A stretch of 32,000 nucleotides of DNA from Waltera hominis. GTDB lineage: Bacteria; Bacillota; Clostridia; Lachnospirales; Lachnospiraceae. The DNA lies in the NCBI GenBank assembly GCA_040096245.1, contig JBBMFB010000009.1:1-32000 (forward strand), in the 5' to 3' direction. Positions within the stretch are counted from its first letter, which is position 1, and every line of letters begins with the position of its first letter. A program made the translations under genes and the position numbers. This document shows positions 1 through 26,350 of this stretch, in pieces. The notes below the pieces were generated by a model. It saw only the letters and a list, made by a program, of their open reading frames with translations. It did no database searches and was not told where the DNA came from.

Positions 1-2
1 GA

Positions 3-308
3 CTCTCATTACGGGAGAACAGCTCTGGAAAGCACAAAGGACAGACGACCATAAGCAAAAGAGGTCGGAGTAAGCTGCGGGCAGTACTGTTCAATGCAGC
101 AATTCCGCTGATAGCGAAGAATCCGGAGTTTAAGTCATTGCATGAGTATTACACGACAAGAGCGAACAATCCGCTCAAGAAGAAACAATCCGTGATTGCC
201 ATCAGCTGTAAGCTGATAAGAGTCTTTTATGCCATCCTAGCAAAAGGAGTGACCTATGATGCACAGAAGTTGATTTCTGACATTCACAGGCAGCCGCAGG
301 TAGCGTAA
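3..308 (+). CDS. IS110-family (DEDD) transposase, C-terminal fragment, 5'-truncated by the window edge
   Basis: Frame 3 is open from the window edge to TAA at 306-308. The translation ...SSGKHKGQTTISKRGRSKLRAVLFNAAIPLIAKNPEFKSLHEYYTTRANNPLKKKQSVIAISCKLIRVFYAILAKGVTYDAQKL carries the SG..G...ISKRG..LR motif and the KL..I.Y helix typical of the IS110 C-terminal domain. It is absent from the ORF track because it has no start codon inside the window. Confidence 0.8.
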   Translation, partial: LSLRENSSGKHKGQTTISKRGRSKLRAVLFNAAIPLIAKNPEFKSLHEYYTTRANNPLKKKQSVIAISCKLIRVFYAILAKGVTYDAQKLISDIHRQPQVA

Positions 309-562
309 GAAGACCAACTGTGAGATTCAGGAGACGTCCGCCGTAAGGCGCTGAAAGGAACAGAAGAATTTCATAAACATAGAGAGCCAAGTCAGATTTA
401 TTTCCATCAGAGCAGAGACTCAGCGAAGGAGCATCATGACGCCCCTTTATGGATAAGCAGAACGAAGGAATTAAGGACCCTGAAGTAAAGGAGATCCCGT
501 ATGACATGGGAGGTTAGGCTGCCGTAAGGAGTTGGGGAAAGAAAGGCCGATCATAACAGAAT

Positions 563-585
563 AAGACGACGTCTTGTTTTGTGTA
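563..585 (+). terminator. Weak hairpin plus T-run, possibly the end of the IS110 transcript or ncRNA
   Basis: aagac-gac-gtctt (5 bp stem, 3 nt loop) followed by gttttgtgt. Confidence 0.25.
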
Positions 586-724
586 CCCTAAACATCCGTA
601 TATCCATGATTCATGGCCAAGGGGAATGACATAGACTTAGAAGCAATCTCTATGAAAAAATGAAAATGTGAGAAAAAGCGAGTTAACAAGAGAAAAACAA
701 AGATTATTATGGGAGGAAAATAAT

Positions 725-934
725 ATGCCTTTATTAACTGTTACTGCTCTTGCTGAAGCTGGTGCAGCTGCATCTTTCGATGTTGCCGCTATCATGCAGG
801 CTGCTGTTACCAGCGTTCAGGGTGACCTGTTCAAGGTTCTGGGTATTGTGGTACCCGCTGCTGTCACCATCGTCGGTGCAAGTGTTGCCGTTAAATATGG
901 TATCCGCTGGCTGAAGTCTCTGAAGACTGCTTAA
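725..934 (+). CDS. Inovirus major coat protein-like (g8p-like), 69 aa
   Basis: ATG at 725 is preceded by GGGAGG 8 nt upstream; the track's 668 start is a GTG with no RBS. MPLLTVTALAEAGAAASFDVAAIMQAAVTSVQGDLFKVLGIVVPAAVTIVGASVAVKYGIRWLKSLKTA has an Ala-rich leader with AXA sites, an acidic N-terminus (D, D), a ~20-aa hydrophobic helix and a basic C-tail (K, R, K, K). Confidence 0.65.
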   Translation: MPLLTVTALAEAGAAASFDVAAIMQAAVTSVQGDLFKVLGIVVPAAVTIVGASVAVKYGIRWLKSLKTA

Positions 935-952
935 AAACTGAATAGTCTCTAA

Positions 953-992
953 CCGGGAAGGGTGAGGAGCTGAAGCTTCCCGCCCTTTTTTG
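953..992 (+). terminator. Rho-independent terminator directly after the coat-like gene
   Basis: cgggaag (954-960) pairs with cttcccg (976-982), followed by cccTTTTTT (986-991). Confidence 0.65.
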
Positions 993-997
993 GTGCT

Positions 998-1110
998 GTC
1001 GGACAAAATTGCTGCAGGTTTGACTCTGCAGTGTGACTTTTGTAGGACAAACTTTGTCGGACAAAATCGCTGCAGCACGCCGGAGATCTCCGGGGCTTTG
1101 TAGGACAAGA
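998..1110 (+). repeat. Two tandem ~58-bp units, each with GTCGGACAAAAT(T/C)GCTGCAG and TTTGTAGGACAA. Candidate operator or iteron region.
   Basis: gtcggacaaaattgctgcag at 998-1017 and gtcggacaaaatcgctgcag at 1056-1075 (19/20 identical). gtaggacaa at 1042-1050 and 1100-1108. tttgtcggacaaa at 1053-1065 is a 6-1-6 palindrome. The same motif recurs inverted at 3965-3979. Confidence 0.7.
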
Positions 1111-1125
1111 AAGGTAAAGGTGGAA

Positions 1126-1317
1126 ATGGTAACTTATTTTGATGAGAAACACTGCAGGGAATACGAATGTATCTTTTACGATCCGGATGTTATTCTCTGC
1201 TGCAAGAGAAATTTTAAAGATCCTGCTGATGGCATGGATGCCTGTTGTGAACCTCCGGATGTTCGGGATGATGGCTTTCATGTTTTGTTAGATAAGAATT
1301 TTTCGGAGGGGGGATAA
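1126..1317 (+). CDS. Small Cys-rich hypothetical protein (63 aa) in the phage structural module
   Basis: ATG at 1126 is preceded by aaaggtgga. MVTYFDEKHCREYECIFYDPDVILCCKRNFKDPADGMDACCEPPDVRDDGFHVLLDKNFSEGG has 6 Cys and ends 2 nt before the next gene. I recognise no family. Confidence 0.4.
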   Translation: MVTYFDEKHCREYECIFYDPDVILCCKRNFKDPADGMDACCEPPDVRDDGFHVLLDKNFSEGG

Positions 1318-1319
1318 CT

Positions 1320-2879
1320 ATGCAGAAAAGAATATCAGCGCTGTTGCTCGCCATGGTCATTGTGATCGGCAGCGTGCTGGGTGGGAATACATTGAAAGTC
1401 AAGGCTGCATCTGTCGCAGTCAGTGAAGAATTTGCCGTGGAGCTGACTATGATGCTCTATAATCTGCTGGAGACGGTTGCTATATCTTCCGGCATCAAAG
1501 ACGGACTGGATGATTACGAATCCGGATCTTCGCTTTATGATGCTTTTATTACATCTGTGGAAAGCATGGCTGAACCGCCTTTCTATGATACCATTATAAC
1601 GATGCCGGATGGTTCCAAGATGACTGTAAAAGAAGCTATGGACGCTGTTGATTCTACGCTCGGAAGTAATGCTTTGAAACTGCCGACTTCTGAAACGTTT
1701 GCAAAGTACCGGGTAATCTCCGGGACTGGTGGCAATGATCCGGATCCGACTCCTACTCCGTCCTCTGATCCGGATAGCACTCCGGTGCCGGATACTGGAT
1801 ATAAGGATCCTTTTTCATATATTCAGGATGTTCTGGTTTCGAGTACGCTTCTTTCTGCTATGGCTGGGATTATCGCAGATCTGTATGCTGGGAAAATAGA
1901 TGGAATAGATGTAAATAATTATATAGACTTAGGTTTTTCTGGGAAATTGGATCAAGATGTTGATGGAAATTATTTAATTAATGGTAGAATAACTTCTTTT
2001 TATGATGAGGACTATTTGTCTTATTATACATTCGATACTAAGAGCAGTGTTCCAGTTCTTGCCATTTATGGTTCTTCTGTTCCTGATAAAACTTGGGGAA
2101 CTCTGACTTTTTATGAATTCCAGTTTAATGGATCTCTGCTCGCCTCTTCTCGTACTAGTTGTATTCATGATTTTTATAAATTTGGAGTTCTTTCCAGTCG
2201 TTCGGACCTTAATAATCGAAGTTATAGTTCTGGCACTACAAAAAAAGAGCTTCTTTTTAATTTAAATATACCTGTATTCGGTTCTTCTGAAAGTGCTAAT
2301 TCTTTTTGTAAAACAGGCGATCTAACAGGTCTTTTGAACGGTGAAGCCTATGACTTCCCGGATCTTGCAACCTCAACAGCAGAGCGGCTGCAACCTCTCA
2401 CCGGCTATGAGTTTGCTCCGGGGCGGCTCCCTGGGATCAACGCTGCATTGTCTACGGCTGCCGCAGCTCTACCGGAACCGGGACTTGATCCGGCAGAAAA
2501 TACAGAAGCTTATAAGAATGCTCTGAATGCTGCCCTGACTGCAGCTTTGCCGGAGCCAGCACCGGAACCTGAACCAGAGCCTGATCCTTCTCCGGATCCC
2601 GGCACTGACGGAGAAGGGGAATCTTACAAGAGAGATCTCCGGCTGATCTTCCCTTTCTGTATCCCTTTCGACTTTATACATTTTATCCAGGCACTGTCTG
2701 CTGATCCGGTAGCTCCTTGCTTCAAGATCCCTATCAAGCTGGACTCCCTGGGAATAGATATGGTTCTGAAGTTAGATCTTGCCTGGATGGATCCAGTGAT
2801 GGAGATCTTCCGGCTGGGGGAACTTGGCTGTTTTGTGATTATGCTCATGGCTGCAACGAAAAAAATGATAGGATGGTGA
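1320..2879 (+). CDS. Secreted modular protein, candidate inovirus adsorption/minor coat protein (g3p-like), 519 aa
   Basis: RBS ggagggggg. N-terminal signal peptide MQKRISALLLAMVIVIGSVLGG..VKA. Two Pro/Asp/Thr/Glu linkers at aa 137-160 (nt 1728-1799) and aa 410-434 (nt 2547-2621). Hydrophobic C-terminal anchor LGELGCFVIMLMAATKKMIGW. The position between the coat and g6-like genes matches Ff g3p. Confidence 0.55.
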   Translation: MQKRISALLLAMVIVIGSVLGGNTLKVKAASVAVSEEFAVELTMMLYNLLETVAISSGIKDGLDDYESGSSLYDAFITSVESMAEPPFYDTIITMPDGSKMTVKEAMDAVDSTLGSNALKLPTSETFAKYRVISGTGGNDPDPTPTPSSDPDSTPVPDTGYKDPFSYIQDVLVSSTLLSAMAGIIADLYAGKIDGIDVNNYIDLGFSGKLDQDVDGNYLINGRITSFYDEDYLSYYTFDTKSSVPVLAIYGSSVPDKTWGTLTFYEFQFNGSLLASSRTSCIHDFYKFGVLSSRSDLNNRSYSSGTTKKELLFNLNIPVFGSSESANSFCKTGDLTGLLNGEAYDFPDLATSTAERLQPLTGYEFAPGRLPGINAALSTAAAALPEPGLDPAENTEAYKNALNAALTAALPEPAPEPEPEPDPSPDPGTDGEGESYKRDLRLIFPFCIPFDFIHFIQALSADPVAPCFKIPIKLDSLGIDMVLKLDLAWMDPVMEIFRLGELGCFVIMLMAATKKMIGW

Positions 2880-2883
2880 TTTT

Positions 2884-3117
2884 ATGGCAGATATGCAGGC
2901 TTTACTCAATGGCTTTTTGGATTTACTGATGAAGGCTTTCCCTACTTCTCCCTTTGCTGACACAATCGAGAAGTTCAGCAAGCTTCCTTACCTCGGTTAT
3001 ATTAACTGGTTTGTTCCTGTTTCGGAAATGGTCGCCATCGGCTCTGCATGGCTGCTCGCCATTGGTGTCTATTATATTTACTCGATCATTGCTCGCTGGG
3101 TGAAGCTGATCGAGTAG
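2884..3117 (+). CDS. Small hydrophobic membrane protein, g6p-like minor coat candidate (77 aa)
   Basis: The hydrophobic segment VAIGSAWLLAIGVYYIYSII lies between the adsorption-like gene and the Zot-like gene, as gene VI does in Ff phages. Confidence 0.45.
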   Translation: MADMQALLNGFLDLLMKAFPTSPFADTIEKFSKLPYLGYINWFVPVSEMVAIGSAWLLAIGVYYIYSIIARWVKLIE

Positions 3118-3136
3118 TCAATAAGGGGGAATTATT

Positions 3137-3805
3137 ATGATATCTTTGTACTCTGGGACTCCCGGATCCGGTAAAAGCTGCCATGCTGCTAGGGAGATTG
3201 CTCTCCGGCTGCAGCGCAAGGATTCCGTGGTGATCGGTAACTTTTACTTTAACACAAAAGCGGTAAAGAAATGTAAAGGTGTATACCTTTATGTCCCGAA
3301 CCATCGTCTGGATCCGGACAAGTTGCTCCGGTTCTCCCGCCGCTTATCAAAGCATCTTGGCCGCAGGCTCCGGGAGGGAGAGGTTAAGATCTACATAGAC
3401 GAGGCGCAGCTGCTTTTTAACTCCAGGGAATACGCTTCTCCGGATCGGCGTGCCTGGTTGTCCTTCTTCTCCCAGCACCGACATTATGGCTATGATGTGA
3501 TTTTGCTCGCACAGTTTGACCGGATGCTGGACAGGCAGATCCGGGGACTGATCGAATACGATTTCGTACATCGTAAGATCTCCAACGCCGGAAAGATCGG
3601 TGCTGTGCTCGGGTTCCTGAGCCGGGGGAATATGTTCGTTTGTATCAAAAAGTGGTATCCCATGAAGCAGACAGTGGATTCCAACTTCTTCTGGGCGAAG
3701 AAATCCGTCTATGAGCTCTATGATTCCTACAATCATTTTGAGTTAATTGACGATAAAGTGAACAAAAAAGAGGTGCAGCGCATGAGACGGATGAGCGGGG
3801 TTTGA
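3137..3805 (+). CDS. Zot/pI-family P-loop NTPase (inovirus assembly/morphogenesis ATPase), 222 aa
   Basis: RBS aaggggga. Walker A GTPGSGKS at the extreme N-terminus, Walker B KIYIDEAQ, then FSQHRHYGYDVILLAQ..D..IR.L, the signature layout of Zonular occludens toxin-like phage proteins. Confidence 0.8.
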   Translation: MISLYSGTPGSGKSCHAAREIALRLQRKDSVVIGNFYFNTKAVKKCKGVYLYVPNHRLDPDKLLRFSRRLSKHLGRRLREGEVKIYIDEAQLLFNSREYASPDRRAWLSFFSQHRHYGYDVILLAQFDRMLDRQIRGLIEYDFVHRKISNAGKIGAVLGFLSRGNMFVCIKKWYPMKQTVDSNFFWAKKSVYELYDSYNHFELIDDKVNKKEVQRMRRMSGV

Positions 3806-4001
3806 GGGGCCCCGCGAAGCCGGCGCAGGCGCTGGCGCCACGCCCTGTAATACGTGGTCTCAAAAACCATTGTCCGACACGGGGAAACGTGCTTGTATTC
3901 TGGCAAAAGTGGCAAAAAATAAATTTGCCCCAGAAGCCTTTTGGGCAAAAATCGAAAAATGCCGATTTTGTCCGACAAATTAAGTTTTAGGGGGTCGGAA
4001 A
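3806..4001 (+). promoter_or_regulatory. Phage intergenic region: GC-rich hairpin cluster, GGCAAAA iterons and a TTTGTC-C-GACAAA palindrome. Candidate origin, packaging signal or rep promoter.
   Basis: Very GC-rich segment at 3806-3847, with ggcgc (3822-3826) pairing gcgcc (3835-3839). ggcaaaa at 3902, 3911 and 3944, and inverted atttgcc at 3923-3929. ttgtccgac at 3870-3878. attttgtccgacaaa at 3965-3979. Confidence 0.5.
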
Positions 4002-5633
4002 ATGCTCGACAAAAGACAATATAACGATAACATCCTATACCATGACATGCCGCTGGAGGATCAGCATGAGTGGTTCGGATATTCTCGTAACAAATTTTTA
4101 CATAACATAGACACCTTTTACTATTCCGTGAAGTTCCGGAATGACTTCCGGCTGAAATCCAAGGATCCGCGGGTCGAGAAAATGCGCAAGTTCTTTAAAC
4201 TGCAGTATAACTATCTGAACGGAAATGAAGACCAGCCGGAACTGTATCTTCCGAAACTCGGCAAGAATCTGTATCTGAAGCCGGTGACCTTCTCCCGGTT
4301 CTATACGACCTGTTTGAGTTATCCGGAGTACTTTGATATCTTTCTGGCTCCGGTGGTTCCAAAAGCGGCAGACGGTGGGGAGTCTGTCACCTGTGAGTGC
4401 GTGGTGCAGATCCGCAGTTACATGCTCTGGATCATGGGCGTCCGGGATGCCTTTGAGAACAGCTATGAATATGTTAAGAACATAGCTGCATACTTCGGTC
4501 TTGAGATCGATTTCGTACAGGAGAACAGAGTAGACTATTGCTGGCACAGCAACTACCTCAAGGATCCGGAAACATTCTTCTCTCCGGAGAACTTCTACAA
4601 GATGCGTGTGGACAGGTTCAAGAATGCAACCTATGTCACAAACAAGGTCGGCTCCGAAGACTATGAGATCGACTATGTGGCACTGGGGAAGCGTTCTGAT
4701 AAAGTATTCGTCAGGATCTATCAGAAGACCAGAGAAGTGATTGAACAGAATTACAAGCCGTGGTTCTTTCAGATCTGGGAAATGAACGGATTGATTTCTA
4801 AGTATGACAAATGGGTCTATGAACGCTGCTATCAGAAAAAGAACTGGTTCTACCGGTATACTGCAAGACTGGAGTTCTTTTTAGAGCACGGTCAGGATCC
4901 GTATTATACAAATTATGTTCGGCAGATCCTAGACGGTACGCTGACCATTGAAGAGGATGCTCTGATCCGGCTGGCCGATAAACTTACACCAAAACTCAAC
5001 TACGTGGTGAATGTGGAGTATCAGACCATGCGCCGGCATTCCAAGAGCTATGACCTGATTCCATTCAAGGATCACCGGAATAAGGGAGCATGTAAAAGGA
5101 TCTACGATTACCTGGACAACCGGAAGCTGATCATTGATTACCTCACGGAAAGAGTATTTAAGATGGTGGAAAAGGTCGGAGATCCCAAGAAGTACCGGAG
5201 ACCATACTGTGGATTTTGGAAGGCGCTTAGATCTACGCGCTGTTTAGATATGAAAATGACACCGGATGAAGTGAAACTTGTCCGGAACTATAACCGGCGC
5301 CTGAATGTGGAATCCATGAAAAAACGCGTGATCGGGTCAGCGGTGACCCTTGGCATTTATACCCGGGGGATCAATGAAGACAGTCCTCTGCAGGATTGTT
5401 TTGAAGCTCTGCTGAAAATGAACGATAATGATATCATGGAAGCACAGAGATATAAACAGAAAAAACTCCGGCAGTTCAACGAGGAGGAACTTGCCGAAGT
5501 CTTCGAGTCTTCTGAAAAGCACCGCTTCCGTCTGCTGGATGAAAGTGACGGCACTCTTTACGCTTATGATAGTATAAAGACATTAGATTTGCAAGGGGGA
5601 TTTTCAAATGATGACGATCCGGCAGATCTATGA
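4002..5633 (+). CDS. Rolling-circle replication initiation protein (Rep_trans / replication initiation factor-like), 543 aa
   Basis: RBS aggggg. The core RVDYCWHSN...DYVALGKRSDKVFVRIYQKTREVIEQ fits the R.D...D ... lG.r.S....riYdK..E pattern of Rep_trans initiators (pT181 Rep / CTXphi RstA type). It sits next to the phage intergenic region. Confidence 0.6.
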   Translation: MLDKRQYNDNILYHDMPLEDQHEWFGYSRNKFLHNIDTFYYSVKFRNDFRLKSKDPRVEKMRKFFKLQYNYLNGNEDQPELYLPKLGKNLYLKPVTFSRFYTTCLSYPEYFDIFLAPVVPKAADGGESVTCECVVQIRSYMLWIMGVRDAFENSYEYVKNIAAYFGLEIDFVQENRVDYCWHSNYLKDPETFFSPENFYKMRVDRFKNATYVTNKVGSEDYEIDYVALGKRSDKVFVRIYQKTREVIEQNYKPWFFQIWEMNGLISKYDKWVYERCYQKKNWFYRYTARLEFFLEHGQDPYYTNYVRQILDGTLTIEEDALIRLADKLTPKLNYVVNVEYQTMRRHSKSYDLIPFKDHRNKGACKRIYDYLDNRKLIIDYLTERVFKMVEKVGDPKKYRRPYCGFWKALRSTRCLDMKMTPDEVKLVRNYNRRLNVESMKKRVIGSAVTLGIYTRGINEDSPLQDCFEALLKMNDNDIMEAQRYKQKKLRQFNEEELAEVFESSEKHRFRLLDESDGTLYAYDSIKTLDLQGGFSNDDDPADL

Positions 5634-6519
5634 TCAGTATATCTATAGCCGGAGCACTTACTGCAGTAAGGAAACGATTGAAAAATATTCAGATGATCTG
5701 AGACTGTTTTTCCGGTTCCTGGAACGTAACTATATGATTTCCGTGGATGCTGCCGGTTTTGACGCGCTGGATCAGGAATCTATTTATCAGGATTACCTGG
5801 TTTACTGCAGAAATAGAAAAATAAAAGACTCTTCCGTCCGGAGCTATGCCCGATCGATAAAGGCTTTTCTGCGGTACTGTTATGATGAAGATTACTGCAA
5901 GGACTATCTGAAAAAAATCAAGATGCCAAAGTCTGACGCAGCACCGGTGCTTCCATTGTTTGAAGCTGATGTGATGCATATCGACACGCTTCTCGACCGG
6001 GAGACGGAGCAGGGTCTGCGCAATTATTGTATCTTTCATCTGATGTTAGACTGCGGACTCCGGCGCCAGGAAGTGGTGCACCTGCAGGTGCATGATCTGA
6101 ACGCTGCTCAAAACATTCTATCGATCAAGAAGTCAAAAGGAAATAAAAGCCGGTTTGTATTGATCCCGGACTTCCTGATCGTAGCTCTGCAGCAATACTT
6201 TGAACTTATGCATATCAGATCCGGCACAATGTTTTTGACTTTGCGTACCAGGAAGCCGATCACTTATAACACGATCAAAATGTTTTACCAGGACATGAAA
6301 GTTGAGTCCGGAATAGATCGGCTGCATGGTCATCTGCTCCGGCACACTTTCGCGATCAGCTTCCTGATCGGCGGCGGCAACCTGGAATTCTTGCGTGTTT
6401 TCATGGGTCATTTTGATTATGTATCAACAAAGACGTATGTAGAACAGGCTACGCAGCTTAAGATCCTGGGCGCACCGGTTTACAAACTGGATCCGATATT
6501 CTTCAAATTCGGTTATTGA
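5608..6519 (+). CDS. Tyrosine recombinase / phage integrase (XerC/D-like), 303 aa
   Basis: RBS aagggggatttt. N-terminal SAM-like core-binding domain. Catalytic residues are GLRRQE (Arg I), HLLRHTF (H-x-x-R) and GHFDYVSTKTY (His/Tyr). It overlaps the rep 3' end by 26 nt. Confidence 0.85.
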   Translation: MMTIRQIYDQYIYSRSTYCSKETIEKYSDDLRLFFRFLERNYMISVDAAGFDALDQESIYQDYLVYCRNRKIKDSSVRSYARSIKAFLRYCYDEDYCKDYLKKIKMPKSDAAPVLPLFEADVMHIDTLLDRETEQGLRNYCIFHLMLDCGLRRQEVVHLQVHDLNAAQNILSIKKSKGNKSRFVLIPDFLIVALQQYFELMHIRSGTMFLTLRTRKPITYNTIKMFYQDMKVESGIDRLHGHLLRHTFAISFLIGGGNLEFLRVFMGHFDYVSTKTYVEQATQLKILGAPVYKLDPIFFKFGY

Positions 6520-6540
6520 TCTATCAGCAATTCTTTAGTT

Positions 6541-6568
6541 CCGGGGACAAAAAAAGAACCGTCCCCGG
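6541..6568. other. Perfect 8-bp stem hairpin between the integrase stop and the tRNA 3' end
   Basis: ccggggac (6541-6548) / gtccccgg (6561-6568) with a 12-nt A-rich loop. No T-run follows on either strand, so it is not a canonical terminator. Confidence 0.5.
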
Positions 6569-6601
6569 AGCTCCTATGTCTCCAAAAACGATTCTCTCGA
6601 G

Positions 6602-6674
6602 TGCACCGCCAGGGGCTCGAACCCTGGACACCCTGATTAAGAGTCAGGTGCTCTACCAACTGAGCTAGCGGTGC
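6602..6674 (-). tRNA. tRNA-Lys: tRNA-Lys (anticodon CTT), 73 nt, CCA not encoded
   Basis: The reverse complement folds as a cloverleaf. Acceptor GCACCGC/GCGGTGC, D arm GCTC-AGTTGGTA-GAGC, anticodon arm CCTGA-CTCTTAA-TCAGG, variable loop GTGTC, T arm CAGGG-TTCGAGC-CCCTG, discriminator A, followed by CTC. Confidence 0.92.
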
Positions 6675-6716
6675 ATTTTCTGTGTCGTTGTTATGTCTCC
6701 CGCAACGACAAGACAT

Positions 6717-6745
6717 ATATTATCACATGGTTTTCAAGAATGCAA
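6717..6745 (-). promoter_or_regulatory. Sigma-70-type promoter for tRNA-Lys
   Basis: On the minus strand, TTGCAT (6745-6740), a 17-nt spacer, then TAATAT (6722-6717), ~40 nt upstream of the tRNA 5' end. Confidence 0.5.
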
Positions 6746-6802
6746 GTACTTTTTGAAAAAAATTTAAATATTTTTTTCGATTTATTTGTACAATAGGTGA
6801 AA

Positions 6803-7249
6803 TTACTGTTTTTTACGGGCTTCCTGGCACTTTTTGCAGTAGCCGTACAGCTCTAATTTGTGTCCGGTGACAGTGAAGTCTCCGGTATCCTGCTCTAAAT
6901 GCACATGTGCAAAGGGGCAGCTGGGCAGCGGAATCCGCTTATGACATTCCAGGCAGACCGCATAATGGGTATGTTCCCCGCGGTTCAATTCGTATACTAC
7001 GGTACCGTCTCCCATGAACGTAGTCTTCTCTACCATTCCGTGTTCTTCAAATGTTGCCAGAATCCGGTAGATCGTGGATACAGCATAATCGCTGCCTTCG
7101 TGATCTCTCTCAATACGATTGTAAATCTGTACGGCACTGAGGGGCTCGGCAGCTTCCTCCAGCACCTGATATACGCATTTTCTCTGTTTGGTCCATTTTA
7201 ATCCCTTGGGATAAGAAATATCATTGTGTTCACATTTATGTTCTTCCAT
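6803..7249 (-). CDS. Fur-family metalloregulator (Zur/Mur-like), 148 aa
   Basis: Winged-helix N-domain (KWTKQRKCVYQVLEE..LSAVQIYNRI), HTHY motif, and two CxxC pairs (CLEC, CKKC). It is the second gene of an operon with a metal permease. Confidence 0.8.
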   Translation of the reverse strand: MEEHKCEHNDISYPKGLKWTKQRKCVYQVLEEAAEPLSAVQIYNRIERDHEGSDYAVSTIYRILATFEEHGMVEKTTFMGDGTVVYELNRGEHTHYAVCLECHKRIPLPSCPFAHVHLEQDTGDFTVTGHKLELYGYCKKCQEARKKQ

Positions 7250-17173: not shown

Positions 17174-17206
17174 ATTCCTTATTGATTCCTTATTGATTCC
17201 TTATTC
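17174..17206. repeat. Three tandem 11-bp direct repeats between the kinase stop and the regulator start
   Basis: The plus strand reads attccttattg / attccttattg / attccttattc. The minus strand reads AATAAGGAATC x3. It begins 2 nt after the kinase stop codon. Confidence 0.8.
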
Positions 17207-17207
17207 A

Positions 17208-18695
17208 TTACTTGGTTCCACCCGGCTGCAGTTCAATGTATTTTCTCAGGACAAAATGCATACAGGTGCCTTCTCCTTCTTTGGCTGTTGCCCATACATA
17301 ACCGCCGTGATCCTCGATGATCTTCTTCACAATAGAAAGTCCGATGCCGCTGCCGCCCTGGGCGGAATTGCGGGAAGCATCCGTGCGGTAGAACCGCTCG
17401 AAGATCTTCTGCAGATCCTTCTGCGCGATTCCCTTGCCGTTGTCCTCGATCTCTACCCGGATAGCATCCACTTCGTCGAGAATACGGATATCAATGTGCC
17501 CATTCGGCTTGTCCATATATTTTACGCTGTTACTGATAATATTATTGATGACCTTCTTCATCTGTTCCGGATCCGCGATGACAACTGTGTCAGGAGATAC
17601 CAGATTCGAATAGTTCAGCTTGATACCCCGCTGCTCCAGATCCAGTCCGACTTCTTCCACACAGTCGCCGAAATAATCCGCCACGTTGATCCGATGGAAA
17701 TTGTACGGGATCCGGTTATTATCAATTCCGGAATAAGTGGTCAGCTCGTTGATCAGACGATCCATATCAATGGCTTTATTGTAGATGGTCTTGATGTATT
17801 TATCCATCTTCTCCGGCGTATCTGCCACACCGTCCATGATTCCTTCCACATAACCCTTAATGGCTGTGATAGGGGTCTTCAGATCATGGGAAATATTGCT
17901 GACCAGCTCTTTGTTCTGCTTCTCATGCTGGGTGTTCTCTTCCGTGGATTCCTTCAGCCGTAAACGCATGTCCTCATAATTGCGGTAGAGATCACCGATC
18001 TCACCCTTGGCATCTGTCTCCAGAACATAATCAAAGTTGCCTTCCTTGATCTTGCGCATTGCCACGTTCAATTCATTGATGGGTTCAAATACGCCCTTAT
18101 GGATCCACTGGGTCAGCATCAGGCTGGTGAAGATCAGGATCACAATAATAGCCACGAACATGTCGATCAGCAGATGTCTCGAGATCAGCGAATTGACCTT
18201 CGTGACGATAAATACGCTGCCCGGTGTTCCATCCCGGAAAGTGAAATCAATCTGTTTTACATACTTCTCCAGTTCATTGTAGAAATATCCACTGTCATCC
18301 GACAGATTCTCGTCACCATAGGCAGGCAGTTTTTCAAAAATCTGCTGTGCGGCTTCTTCATTGCCGGCATAATACAGCTTATCACCTTTTCTTACAATAA
18401 TGTAAGTAGACTTCCGCGATACCTCCTCATTGATATGATCCAGATATTCTTTATCTTCCAGCCTGCTGCTGTCTTCCCTCGCCTGGTCCAGCAGCACATA
18501 ATACGCCTGATCCGTGGTATTGGTGAATTCCCTGAAATTCTCCGACATCATGGAATAATCAATATCCGTCAGACTGAGACCCTGAGAAAAATTCATCAGG
18601 TAAATAGCAATCATCACGAACGCCATGATCGTCAGCAACAACGGAAGTAATATAATACTTATAAATGTTACACGAAGTCTGGTTTTAAATTTCAT
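17208..18695 (-). CDS. Sensor histidine kinase (2 TM, extracytoplasmic domain, HAMP, HisKA, HATPase_c), ~495 aa
   Basis: H-box SHDLKTPITAIKGY, N-box NNIISNSVKY, DNGKGI, GGSGIGLSIV. The start is set at MKFKTRL (18695). The longer track ORF (18782) has no RBS and begins ~20 nt from the predicted TSS; -10 TATAAT at 18813-18808 with an upstream TGc. Confidence 0.85.
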   Translation of the reverse strand: MKFKTRLRVTFISIILLPLLLTIMAFVMIAIYLMNFSQGLSLTDIDYSMMSENFREFTNTTDQAYYVLLDQAREDSSRLEDKEYLDHINEEVSRKSTYIIVRKGDKLYYAGNEEAAQQIFEKLPAYGDENLSDDSGYFYNELEKYVKQIDFTFRDGTPGSVFIVTKVNSLISRHLLIDMFVAIIVILIFTSLMLTQWIHKGVFEPINELNVAMRKIKEGNFDYVLETDAKGEIGDLYRNYEDMRLRLKESTEENTQHEKQNKELVSNISHDLKTPITAIKGYVEGIMDGVADTPEKMDKYIKTIYNKAIDMDRLINELTTYSGIDNNRIPYNFHRINVADYFGDCVEEVGLDLEQRGIKLNYSNLVSPDTVVIADPEQMKKVINNIISNSVKYMDKPNGHIDIRILDEVDAIRVEIEDNGKGIAQKDLQKIFERFYRTDASRNSAQGGSGIGLSIVKKIIEDHGGYVWATAKEGEGTCMHFVLRKYIELQPGGTK

Positions 18696-22141: not shown

Positions 22142-22779
22142 TTTTCCCCCGTCGCTGCAGTTTCCGTTTCCACAGTCTCCACAGCTTCCGTGGTTTCTGT
22201 TTCAGCAGTCTCCGTTGCTTCGGTACTTTCTGTTTCTTCGGTAGTCTCCTCCACCAGATCATCCAGTGTATAATTGAAACCGGTCACCACGTTGGTGGTC
22301 ACGACATACACTTTCATTTCAGAGGGAAATGCAATGTAATACTGGCTGGTCATGGAATTCAGATTACCGACATTAATGATCACGCTGCGATCTGCAGTCT
22401 CGTACTGAATGGTACGCTCCGGATCTGCCAGTCCATACTGTGACATATCCGTCACATTTTCAATCACCTGCTCTGCCTTTAACGGTGCCACCTTCAGGAT
22501 CATCGCCTTGATACGCTCCTGGTTCAGATTAAGGGAATGATCGTCCGTATAGTACCATGTTTCATCCTTTTTTTCAAAGGCATAGGTCTCTCCCTCATAT
22601 ACATAACTGAAGCTGGTAATATCATCGGAGTTCACATCCAGCACCGTCTCCTGTGTATCCTCGGTGGTGGAAGTCGCAGACGATGCATTTTTATTATACT
22701 GTCGGATGCCCAGGAATGCTGCCGCCAGAACCACCAGTGCCAGCAGCATTCCGATCATCTGTCTTTGTTTCTTTTTCAT
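22138..22779 (-). CDS. DUF4340-like membrane-anchored protein with an acidic Thr/Glu-rich tail, ~213 aa
   Basis: The start is set at MKKKQRQMIGMLLALVVLAAAF (22779, AAAGG RBS). N-terminal TM anchor. It sits downstream of a GldG-like gene, the usual DUF4340 context. C-tail EETTEETESTEATETAETETTEAVETVETETAATGEN. Confidence 0.6.
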   Translation of the reverse strand: MKKKQRQMIGMLLALVVLAAAFLGIRQYNKNASSATSTTEDTQETVLDVNSDDITSFSYVYEGETYAFEKKDETWYYTDDHSLNLNQERIKAMILKVAPLKAEQVIENVTDMSQYGLADPERTIQYETADRSVIINVGNLNSMTSQYYIAFPSEMKVYVVTTNVVTGFNYTLDDLVEETTEETESTEATETAETETTEAVETVETETAATGEN

Positions 22780-24990: not shown

Positions 24991-26073
24991 TCATTCCGCC
25001 TCCTTTGTAGTTACAGTTTCTTTTTTCTCTTCTCCGGGCTGTACTTCCTCTTCCGAAGCTTCTGTCTGCTGTGCAGCAGCTGTGATTTCCGGCTTTTTTC
25101 TTTTTGAGAATAGTTTGTGCTTCTCCGGCTGCGCGGGTGCCACATCCTCGGTCAGTTCCAGGAAGATGTCTTCCAGAGACTTCTCCGCATGGGTCATCTC
25201 TAAAATAGGCAGCTTTGCATCTGCCAGTGCATAGAATACCTGCTCTCTGATATCTGCATTCTCTTTGGAGATCACTTTCAGCTTTGCAACATTTTTGGAT
25301 GCCTCTGTGTTCTCTTCGATCCGGTCGATCTGTGAGATCTCCTGCAATGCACTCTTCACCGAGGCAGCGCTTCCCTTTACTTCCAGGTTCAGTTCCATGG
25401 AGCCGCTCATAAGCTTCTGCAGATTCTCCGGAGAATCGCTGGCTACCAGCTTACCGTGGGCTATGATCATAATATGGTCGCAGACCGCGCTGACCTCCGA
25501 CAGAATATGGGAGCTGAGGATCACGGTATGATTCTCCCCCAGCTTGCGGATCAGATCACGGATCTCGATGATCTGTTTCGGATCCAGACCTACCGTGGGC
25601 TCATCCAGAATAATAACCTCCGGGTAGCCAAGGATTGCCTGCGCCAATCCGACTCTCTGCCTGTAACCTTTTGACAGATTCTTGATCAGACGCTGCTGCA
25701 TATCGGTGATCTGTGTCATTTCCATGACCTCGTCAATCTGTTGCTTCCGCTCTTTTTTCGGCACTTTTTTCAGTTCTGCCACGAAGTCCAGGTATTCTCT
25801 GACAGTCATGTCAACATACAGCGGCGGAAGCTCCGGCAGATAACCGATGGCACGCTTTGCCTCCTCCGGATCTTTTTGGATGTCTTTGCCATCGATGGTC
25901 ACAGTGCCCTCCATGGCTGCCAGATAACCCGTGATGATGTTCATGGTCGTGGATTTACCTGCGCCGTTAGGACCAAGAAAGCCGTAAATCTGTCCCTTTT
26001 CCACACGGAAAGAGAGATGATCTACGGCAATATGGTCACCATATTTTTTTGTCAGATTGCTTACTTCTATCAT
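24991..26073 (-). CDS. ABC transporter ATP-binding protein (ABC-2/CcmA-type) with a charged C-terminal extension, ~360 aa
   Basis: The start is set at MIEVSNLTKKYG (26073), which has GGGAGG 7 nt upstream. Walker A GPNGAGKST, Q-loop, signature LSKGYRQR, Walker B ILDEPTVGLD, H-loop SSHIL. Confidence 0.9.
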   Translation of the reverse strand: MIEVSNLTKKYGDHIAVDHLSFRVEKGQIYGFLGPNGAGKSTTMNIITGYLAAMEGTVTIDGKDIQKDPEEAKRAIGYLPELPPLYVDMTVREYLDFVAELKKVPKKERKQQIDEVMEMTQITDMQQRLIKNLSKGYRQRVGLAQAILGYPEVIILDEPTVGLDPKQIIEIRDLIRKLGENHTVILSSHILSEVSAVCDHIMIIAHGKLVASDSPENLQKLMSGSMELNLEVKGSAASVKSALQEISQIDRIEENTEASKNVAKLKVISKENADIREQVFYALADAKLPILEMTHAEKSLEDIFLELTEDVAPAQPEKHKLFSKRKKPEITAAAQQTEASEEEVQPGEEKKETVTTKEAE

Positions 26074-26290
26074 ATTTGCCTCCCTGATATGGTGTGATTC
26101 CCCACCTGATACCTCTGGGTACTCAGAACTGATACCCCGAATTGCTTCGCAGCAAGCTGCTCCCGCAATTCTAAAAACATTCGGAATCCGCTGATTTGCT
26201 ACGCAAATCGCTACTTCCTCATGTTTTACGGGTGTAAAATTCAACCGCTTTATCATGCAAGCATGAACAGCGGTTAACCTTTACACCCTT
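26074..26290 (-). promoter_or_regulatory. ~215-nt structured 5' leader of the ABC operon, unassigned to any class
   Basis: On the minus strand there is a long composite hairpin GGGTGTAAA..AACCGCT..catgc-tt-gcatg..AGCGGTT..TTTACACCC (about 26226-26290). Then AAAACAT...ATGTTTT enclosing GATTTGC/GCAAATC, and the hairpin GAATTGC..GCAGC-tt-GCTGC..GCAATTC. On the plus strand, CTGATACC-TCTGGGTACTCAGA-a-CTGATACC lies at 26106-26136. Confidence 0.4.
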
Positions 26291-26295
26291 GTATC

Positions 26296-26350
26296 AGTAT
26301 ATGTCTCAAATGTCATGAAAAGGTGAAACCTTTGTGAAAATTGTGTGAAA
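26296..26350 (-). promoter_or_regulatory. Activator-type promoter: three TTTCAC direct repeats at exact 11-bp phasing upstream of a TATACT -10
   Basis: Plus-strand gtgaaa at 26323-26328, 26334-26339 and 26345-26350. Minus-strand -10 TATACT at 26301-26296. The -35 position reads ACCTTT (poor). Confidence 0.5.

Follow-up and report, generated by a model that had tools for sequence, protein, structure and literature searches.

What kind of element lies between a partial insertion sequence (IS) and a lysine tRNA gene at the left end of contig JBBMFB010000009.1 of the human gut bacterium Waltera hominis (Lachnospiraceae), and how much of it is there? The stretch of DNA analysed here, hereafter the window, comprises positions 1 to 32,000 of this contig. 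An original prediction, made from the letters alone, had read the interval 586-6601 as a compact inovirus-like prophage in a Gram-positive-type genome. Our analysis supports the phage type: with a probability of roughly 85%, window 712-6643 represents ~5.9 kb at the right of a temperate filamentous (Tubulavirales/inovirus-type) prophage, ~9.4 kb long when intact, that is integrated in tRNA-Lys(CTT), a reading on which homology, predicted structure, the anatomy of the attachment (att) sites, empty integration sites and a circular relative agree. The predicted interval does not hold, as phage DNA begins at 712 and the phage and att region reaches 6643. Nor is the prophage complete: about 63% of it, the right-hand two thirds, is present in the window, with the left arm missing. 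The features of the region are as follows (ORF, open reading frame; RBS, ribosome-binding site; TBP, TATA-binding protein).

1-714, + strand: 3′ 40% of an IS110-family IS, comprising the transposase C-terminus (3-308) and a ~400-nt non-coding tail, in place of the phage left arm
712-724, + strand: RBS of the coat gene (GGAGG) and IS/phage junction; homology to all intact prophages begins exactly at 712
725-934, + strand: major-coat-like protein, 69 aa (hydropathy, phrog_1646, homologue in bajarodino virus 62)
935-1125, + strand: structured intergenic region with a stem-loop and T-run at 953-995 and a cluster of palindromes
1126-1317, + strand: Cys-rich, non-hydrophobic ORF, 63 aa, conserved in position and called as a gene in all related loci
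1320-2879, + strand: secreted, C-terminally anchored protein, 519 aa (hydropathy, homologue in bajarodino virus 62)
2884-3117, + strand: membrane protein, 77 aa, g6p-like by position, with a hydrophobic segment at residues 44-69
3137-3805, + strand: Zot/pI-like P-loop morphogenesis ATPase, 222 aa (Pfam, PHROGs, motifs)
3806-4001, + strand: intergenic region before rep, with one palindrome copy, TTTGTCCGACAAA, at 3966-3980; the same site lies upstream of rep in the circular relative L026
4002-5633, + strand: predicted rolling-circle initiator of the Rep_trans (TBP-like) fold, 543 aa (predicted structure, profile alignment)
5608-6519, + strand: Xer-like tyrosine integrase, 303 aa, with a Phage_integrase domain; overlaps rep by 26 nt
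6548-6643, no strand assigned: attR, a 96-nt repeat; the same block adjoins TatD at the opposite end of intact prophages
6601-6674, - strand: intact tRNA-Lys(CTT) (ARAGORN; Rfam tRNA, 68.6 bits)

All seven ORFs of the studied interval were found on the + strand, so that the co-orientation originally described stands. The close packing claimed for them, with gaps or overlaps of 2-20 nt, applies to four of the six junctions (2, 4, 19 and -26 nt) and fails at the other two, where 191 nt separate the coat gene from the 63-aa ORF and 196 nt separate Zot from Rep. The family assignment of the 222-aa product as a Zot/pI P-loop ATPase is borne out by a significant match to Pfam Zot (E 4.8e-16 over residues 1-198) as well as to phrog_197 (E 6e-24) and phrog_1675, ‘protein I of M13’ (E 6e-9), and the protein carries both a Walker A motif (GTPGSGKS, residues 7-14) and a Walker B motif (IYIDE, 85-89). 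Searches of the phage ORFs against Pfam and PHROGs revealed no capsid, terminase, tail or secretin gene in the window or in full-length relatives, as had been noted for the window.

Upstream of this ATPase, the genes follow the order of a filamentous phage structural module. The 69-aa protein has an acidic N-terminus, a single hydrophobic segment at residues 38-56 (Kyte-Doolittle hydropathy 2.39) and a C-terminal tail of charge +4, and reading by eye places a probable signal peptide at its N-terminus (…AGAAA/SFD, with the slash at the cleavage position). These are the hydrophobic helix and basic tail for which it had been called coat-like; absence of the helix had been named as grounds to doubt the prediction. 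It matches phrog_1646, ‘major coat protein’, weakly (E 7e-3). Bajarodino virus 62 (PQ006106.1), a circular Inoviridae genome of 6,221 nt from rodent faeces, has a syntenic gene whose 79-aa product is 54% identical to it over 50 aa (E 1.8e-5). Homology and synteny with this virus extend from the coat gene to Zot: its 504-aa protein is 37% identical to the 519-aa protein (E 3e-88), and the 77-aa protein and Zot are 61% and 66% identical to their counterparts. The 63-aa ORF gave no family match.

Hydropathy agrees with the description of the 519-aa product as a secreted protein with two Pro-rich linkers and a C-terminal anchor, placing a signal-like segment at residues 5-23 and a hydrophobic segment at 493-511, and likewise with that of the 77-aa product as a membrane protein. 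Pairwise comparison and a 42-sequence alignment show that residues 1-190 and 335-519 of the 519-aa protein are near-invariant and that residues ~195-335 are hypervariable. Such conserved ends around a hypervariable centre are the pattern expected of a receptor-binding tip protein, and by analogy we consider it a g3p-like adsorption protein. Its predicted structure is confident only at residues ~200-340 (predicted local distance difference test (pLDDT) ~85-91, against a mean of 47.5), where it is beta-rich; this central domain has no PDB fold match at E <= 0.001, and an exact look-up of the full sequence returned no record. The roles of the coat, 519-aa and 77-aa proteins are putative.

Two intergenic regions interrupt this arrangement. 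The ‘strong terminator’ reported after the coat gene exists as a stem-loop followed by a T-run, and is more modest than that description, with a 7-bp stem and a 15-nt loop that a consensus terminator scan did not call. Further along the same region, the palindromic motif TTGT[AC][CG]GACAA occurs at 1040, 1054 and 1098, with a one-mismatch copy at ~998. The window holds four distinct sites of this motif, all within the phage, against 0.05 expected, and the circular genome L026 holds 10 in three clusters (near the left arm at attP, after the coat gene and upstream of rep). Because the loop is too short for a hairpin, a binding site for a protein, either the repressor or Rep, is likely. Region 935-1125 is a candidate operator, origin or packaging region. 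Folding scores of the intergenic single-stranded DNA (ssDNA; z = -2.7 for 935-1125 and -1.4 for the region before rep) are suggestive at best.

The 543-aa product had been described as a Rep_trans-like rolling-circle initiator. Searched against Pfam, it gave no match even at E <= 1, Rep_trans (PF02486) included; NCBIfam returned none, comparison with PDB sequences (phmmer, profile) gave nothing meaningful, and tblastn against 50,697 phage records found no match. Its AlphaFold2 model is confident (pLDDT 91.6, predicted template modelling score (pTM) 0.86), and the top Foldseek matches of this model are RepSTK1 (4cij; E 2e-8, TMt 0.58) and RepDE (4cwc/4cwe; E 2e-6), followed by TBPs, a fold relationship already known for Rep_trans (PMC13107129). 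In hhalign, RIY240QK aligned with RIY191NK of pT181 RepC (E 8.9e-4, with the RepC sequence entered by hand); we follow the published definition of the catalytic Tyr motif III of Rep_trans, with its YxxK-type context (PMC13107129). RepSTK1 (4CIJ), RepDE (4CWC/4CWE) and RepC thus share with the window Rep the TBP-like catalytic fold and an R-I-Y-x-K motif with the Tyr aligned to Tyr191 of RepC, and by eye the R-x-D-containing strand of Rep_trans can also be placed (NRVDYCWH in the window Rep, TRLDLAFD in Rep_trans). They differ from it in sequence (9-12% identity) and in length (~270-314 aa versus 543 aa), the window Rep being about twice the size of plasmid Reps, with an extra helical C-terminal region of ~200 residues.

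An alignment of 65 Rep sequences shows invariant D37, Y40, R176, D178, H182, N184, R238, Y240, K242 and E245, among other positions. Rep_trans is the only Pfam family that recurs among these relatives (9 of 65, all sub-threshold, best E 0.0087). We conclude from the model and alignments that the 543-aa protein is probably a rolling-circle initiator of the Rep_trans fold, with Tyr240 as its putative catalytic residue. As it has no match to the PF02486 hidden Markov model (HMM), we class it as a relative of the Rep_trans fold and not as a member of PF02486. The initiator prediction is in this way upheld by fold and aligned Tyr, though not by the Rep_trans HMM. A missing HMM match had been put forward as evidence against the prediction; it is what we found, and in our judgement it is outweighed by the confident fold match together with the aligned Tyr. 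The family is large, comprising over 835 clusters when grouped at 90% identity and 340 when grouped at 50%, and these 340 clusters, labelled ‘hypothetical protein’, become annotatable as Rep_trans-fold initiators.

Overlapping rep is the gene for the 303-aa protein, which matches PF00589 Phage_integrase (E 3.5e-25), SAM-like N-terminal domains and phrog_1 (E 5e-34) and in which motif comparison locates catalytic-type residues R152, K180, H242-x-x-R245, H268 and Y277, confirming it as a tyrosine integrase. All of its matches to NCBIfam XerC/XerD/XerA equivalogs fall below the cut-offs, and we therefore describe it as Xer-like and not as a Xer orthologue. The tRNA-Lys(CTT) gene that the integrase was said to abut is indeed adjacent, and is the only RNA returned by a permissive Rfam search of window 1-7000; integration, however, runs into the tRNA gene itself. 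The attR repeat consists of a tRNA-downstream part (the right hairpin arm, then GCTCCTATGTCTCCAAAAAC) and the 3′ half of tRNA-Lys, extending to the anticodon loop at its 5′ edge (…CCTGATTAAGAG). Its attL counterpart is 94-100% identical in the relatives L016, L018 and L025, and the block is present as a single copy both at empty sites and in the circular form. The window contains attR alone of the two repeats. A 20-nt exact repeat, GCTCCTATGTCTCCAAAAAC, was also considered as the att site and was replaced by the 96-nt block after better-preserved attL copies were compared.

The position of the crossover can be narrowed from the spacer within these sites. At attL of L018 the spacer is of the host type seen at empty sites (AGTCCTCTTGAG), whereas attR and attP carry the phage type (…TTCTCTCGAG), which places the crossover on the tRNA side of the spacer. 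With the crossover in the tRNA part, the 3′ half is replaced by a copy from the phage, and the tRNA remains intact. In L001 (attL at 3102-3214), and likewise in L002-L010, attL has a decayed tRNA 3′ half, in which the spacer is longer by a 17-nt insertion and the acceptor strand, CGGTGTA, no longer pairs with GCACCGC. Set against the 94-100% identical copies of L016, L018 and L025, these decayed sites suggest that the integrations differ in age or took place in succession.

Empty sites and a circular relative mark this segment as a unit. Fifty-seven metagenome contigs match a gapped pattern in which TatD starts within ~130 nt of an intact tRNA-Lys, a configuration possible only when the site is unoccupied. 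In all eight of these contigs that were aligned, the host flanks are joined directly and the 9.4 kb are missing, which provides the comparison with empty tRNA-Lys sites for which the original prediction had called. The junction that it had sought was found in a relative, not in the window copy: contig L026 (10,299 nt; Lachnospiraceae metagenome-assembled genome HGM12151, Rep 99% identical) has an exact 99-nt terminal overlap within unique int sequence, and its order of int, att and left arm reads across attP on a circular or tandem molecule of 10,200 nt. Four other contigs of ~9-9.5 kb (L012, L017, L107 and L108) end inside the att repeat, leaving L026 as the only one that bears on circularity. 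Together, the empty sites and the attP-spanning circular contig indicate a discrete mobile unit.

What the window lacks can be read from its intact relatives. The identical Rep protein occurs on many gut-metagenome contigs, where a ~9.4-kb unit lies between TatD and tRNA-Lys/FUR. Their left arm, 3.6 kb not present in the window, encodes a divergently oriented XRE/CI-type repressor (Phage_CI_repr 2e-4, phrog_8 6e-14) and about nine small genes, including those for an 83-aa membrane protein and for products of about 97, 94, 78-179, 88, 142 and 135 aa. This fits the suggestion that a repressor and other functions lie to the left of the IS110 element. The 135-aa product has a C-terminal transmembrane helix. 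In L001, a very hydrophobic ORF of 42-48 aa (6585-6731; a 42-aa gene in L110) lies just 5′ of the coat gene, the position of Ff g7p/g9p.

In the window, an IS stands where the left arm would be. The C-terminal part of its transposase matches Transposase_20 (E 1.8e-9), and 309-711 is IS tail, not phage. Elsewhere, in unrelated contexts (L112, L113), the IS recurs at 95-97% identity, with homology stopping at ...TTATTATGGGAGG (window ~711-716). At the junction, intact prophages read ...CAGCTCATAGAA/GGAGG and the window reads ...GATTATTATG/GGAGG, where the slash precedes position 712. The full copy in L113 is ~1.75 kb long, and its transposase is called as a pair of overlapping ORFs, one with the DEDD_Tnp_IS110 and the other with the Transposase_20 domain; of the two, DEDD was found in that copy only and would lie beyond the window. 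Window 1-714 shows no similarity to any phage locus. In BLAST, window 1-711 had no match among 110 loci and matched only the IS copies in unrelated contexts; window 1-720 had no match among plasmids. The 33-mer spanning the IS/phage junction has 0 matches in metagenome contigs, and exact look-ups of the coat and 63-aa proteins returned IS-free copies only. For an IS110-family element, the ~400-nt non-coding 3′ tail is unusually long (loci L111-L113), and its RNA fold has z = -1.65. Other genomes carry a ~800-bp remnant that shares the right end of the IS and is flanked by an MCP gene on one side and an AraC/GGDEF gene on the other, which indicates that the IS undergoes rearrangement. At 683-710, the tail contains a sigma-70-like TTAACA-16-TATTAT (10/12) facing the coat gene, a match to consensus alone, which could drive the orphaned structural genes.

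The window copy is thus an IS-truncated or IS-interrupted prophage. As the left arm with its repressor and attL lie outside the window and the IS sits at the RBS of the coat gene, the copy as it stands is probably not inducible. It may have become a fixed and decaying remnant, in which the left 3.6 kb were lost through the IS event or through recombination that the IS mediated, leaving an immobile cluster that is perhaps partly expressed from an IS-borne promoter. The sharp end of phage homology at 712, at the coat RBS, favors this view, as do the absence of the phage left arm, attL and the left host flank from all 32 kb, the ~800-bp form of the IS elsewhere and the promoter-like site facing the coat gene. 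Against it, every one of the seven ORFs still present is intact, and four of them (Rep, Zot, Int and coat) have sequences identical to widespread phage alleles, from which we take the IS event to be recent; moreover, simple insertion of a full ~1.75-kb IS would leave only ~1 kb between the start of the window and the left arm. We regard permanent decay as a serious contender whose chances fall somewhat short of even. It concerns the state of this copy and is compatible with its identity as a prophage.

That identity has two further competitors. Since the left edge of the window cuts inside the IS and the neighbourhood beyond is unseen, the cluster might be a fragment of something larger, a tailed prophage or conjugative island with the rest of its genes outside the interval, the circumstance that, according to the original prediction, homologous loci might reveal. 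Those loci show instead a discrete unit: intact copies lie between TatD and tRNA-Lys with att repeats 9.4-10.2 kb apart, a length within the range sought for such a genome (about 5-15 kb, discrete; the window holds ~5.9 kb of it), empty sites are missing precisely this segment, a circle of 10.2 kb is known, and no copy carries capsid, terminase, tail or conjugation genes. On these grounds we rejected a larger prophage or integrative conjugative element, which we consider very improbable. More of a case can be made for a non-viral integrative element, that is, a plasmid-like rolling-circle replicon with a Rep_trans initiator and an integrase at tRNA-Lys, using a Zot-like ATPase and small membrane proteins for DNA transfer or another membrane role. 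Plasmids and integrative mobilisable elements often encode Rep_trans initiators and tyrosine integrases (general knowledge; PMC13107129), the ATPase has no clear transmembrane segment and weakly matches a VirB4-like conjugation ATPase model in its P-loop only (E 8e-4, 30 residues), and the lineage is known from sequence, not from particles. Nevertheless, the best full-length family of this ATPase is Zot/pI, the coat-like, hypervariable-centred 519-aa and 77-aa genes stand in Ff-like order, no copy contains a relaxase, coupling protein or other conjugation family, and the coat-to-Zot module is homologous to that of a deposited circular Inoviridae genome with a different Rep and no integrase. 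A non-viral element is accordingly unlikely, if less so than a larger one.

Several observations nonetheless weigh against an inovirus-type prophage and keep our estimate below certainty. The 222-aa ATPase reaches a hydropathy maximum of only 1.18 (residues 152-170), below the transmembrane cut-off that we applied (Kyte-Doolittle 1.6 over 19 aa; hydropathy only); the Zot of bajarodino virus 62 reaches 1.49. In a survey of inoviruses, proteins were accepted as genuine pI only with one or two segments spanning the membrane (Roux et al. 2019; PMC6813254). The coat assignment draws on physico-chemical features, the weak PHROG match (E 7e-3) and one 50-aa homology, and the 519-aa protein has no detectable relative of known function in Pfam, PHROGs or PDB folds. 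Family searches identified neither an ssDNA-binding protein nor an excisionase, the intact left arm included. The circular contig L026 could also derive from a tandem array, and the window starts inside the IS, so that any left arm beyond it lies outside our view. Finally, support for the phage lineage comes from sequence rather than from virions.

How does this prophage compare with known filamentous phages? Bajarodino virus 62 has a homologous, syntenic module of coat, 519/504-aa, 77-aa and Zot genes and an XRE-type regulator, as do intact relatives of the window phage. It differs in that its genome is smaller and episomal, encodes no integrase and has a ~204-aa ‘replication initiator protein’ where the window phage has its 543-aa Rep. 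Uncultivated ‘Inoviridae sp.’ records from metagenomes of the human gut (GenBank TPA entries DAI63525.1 and DAI38662.1; IMGVR_UViG_3300006257_000071) belong to the same lineage: a Rep cluster representative with this label is 97% identical, and relatives of the integrase and of the 519-aa protein bear it as well. IMG/VR contains whole copies of this phage, and L017 can be aligned along all of its 9.5 kb to the intact prophage L001, at 94%. These records are automatically annotated, with Rep, coat and adsorption-like proteins given as ‘hypothetical protein’; none carries the IS. The window copy, for its part, is without the left arm. Two copies (L028, L030) fall in bins labelled Bacteroidales/Bacteroidaceae, most likely a mis-binned small mobile contig rather than a host jump.

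Among characterized phages, the Ff group (M13/fd/f1) shows the same body plan and the gene order g8-g3-g6-g1: a coat protein that is small and has a signal peptide, a transmembrane helix and a basic tail; a large tip protein that is secreted, anchored at its C-terminus and flexibly linked; a small membrane protein; and the pI ATPase with its P-loop. Ff phages have no integrase, replicate with an HUH-type gII initiator, export through the pIV secretin and possess a pI with a transmembrane helix; to our knowledge, their coat protein and g3p have no detectable sequence homology to those of the window phage. CTXphi of Vibrio cholerae is temperate and filamentous with a Zot ATPase and a repressor module, as in the lineage described here, and uses host XerCD at dif and the host secretin EpsD. 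The window phage differs from it in its own integrase, its tRNA target, its monoderm host and a Rep that is double the length and escapes detection by Pfam. The RstA protein of CTXphi is itself a Rep_trans-family initiator (PMC13107129).

The rep-int half of the element also occurs with other structural genes. At 14 Lachnospiraceae genome loci with a Rep relative, int lies directly downstream of rep in all 14 and a Zot-like gene directly upstream in 11, of which three are of the 222-aa type and eight of a 293-aa type with an N-terminal transmembrane segment. From these two Zot types we infer that the Rep-Int module travels with two different morphogenesis modules. When L012 (3658-6595) is compared with window 725-3805, the Reps are 87% and the integrases 95% identical, yet the morphogenesis module is entirely different, consisting of proteins of 68, 209, 269 and 82 aa and the 293-aa Zot-like protein with its N-terminal transmembrane segment. 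The two genomes reflect modular exchange between a replication/integration half and a structural half.

These parts can be assembled into a plausible life cycle. Sequence comparison shows the first step, in which the Xer-like integrase recombines the 96-nt attP, a copy of the host stretch, with the 3′ half of tRNA-Lys and the sequence downstream. The divergently transcribed XRE/CI-type repressor of the left arm would then keep the phage silent; the TTGT[AC][CG]GACAA palindrome is a candidate for its operator or for a site bound by Rep. Once the phage is excised as a circle, Rep, judging by its fold and conserved residues, would nick the origin through Tyr240 and drive rolling-circle synthesis of ssDNA. 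By analogy with Ff and CTXphi, the Zot/pI-like ATPase and small membrane proteins may thread this ssDNA through the membrane, where it would pick up the 69-aa coat protein, and the 519-aa protein with its swappable central domain may sit at the tip as receptor-binding protein beside the 77-aa protein. A secretin would not be needed because the host is monoderm.

This phage type is real, is common in gut metagenomes and is already catalogued as ‘Inoviridae sp.’; nothing here alters what is known in kind. The exact coat protein is found in 141 blocks of the collection searched and the exact Zot protein on 706 contigs. The window Rep, Zot, Int and one host protein exactly match proteins of W. hominis CLA-AA-H183 (MEQ2540860-62); this strain is the W. 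hominis type strain (DSM 114684, GCA_040096245.1; PMC12056005). Inoviruses have been surveyed across bacteria, monoderm hosts, tRNA att sites and Y-recombinases included (Roux et al. 2019; PMC6813254), and a 2025 viral-tagging paper described Faecalibacterium/Gemmiger inoviruses in what it calls the first report for those hosts (PMC12323421). The literature searched contained no experimental work on a Lachnospiraceae filamentous phage, and the gut Clostridia filamentous phages in it are sequence predictions or viral-tagging detections only.

The locus is of value chiefly for the annotation of a large ‘hypothetical’ Rep family and for the cultured host species that it offers to work on the monoderm inoviruses of the gut. 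With defined att sites, empty sites, a circular form and a type strain that can be grown, chronic infection and the export of filaments by a monoderm become testable. Direct use of the window copy is limited by its IS disruption; the right host flank of the window is 100% identical to that of L001 over 9 kb, and intact copies are found in strains with this flank. A bolder interpretation, which we hold only tentatively and think doubtful at present, is that these phages form a very prevalent, unstudied filamentous clade of human-gut Lachnospiraceae mechanistically unlike textbook inoviruses, with a double-length Rep_trans-fold initiator from a large unannotated family, an anchorless pI ATPase, a cassette-swapped tip domain and a Rep-Int pair exchanged between two unrelated morphogenesis modules. 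A pI ATPase with no anchor of its own would make assembly dependent on separate, small membrane proteins. Were this interpretation true, the lineage could become the first tractable model, in a gut commensal, of how filaments leave through a Gram-positive wall without a secretin.

The host part of the window contains a few features of its own. A Clostridiales-1 RNA (Rfam RF01699), an orphan structured RNA, lies at 26130-26296 on the - strand (123 bits, E 7e-28). It overlaps the 5′ end of the ORF at 24991-26256, and the real start of this ORF is therefore probably further downstream. Tandem repeats are found at 17174-17213 (11 nt, 3.6 copies) and 22159-22236 (33 nt, 2.4 copies).

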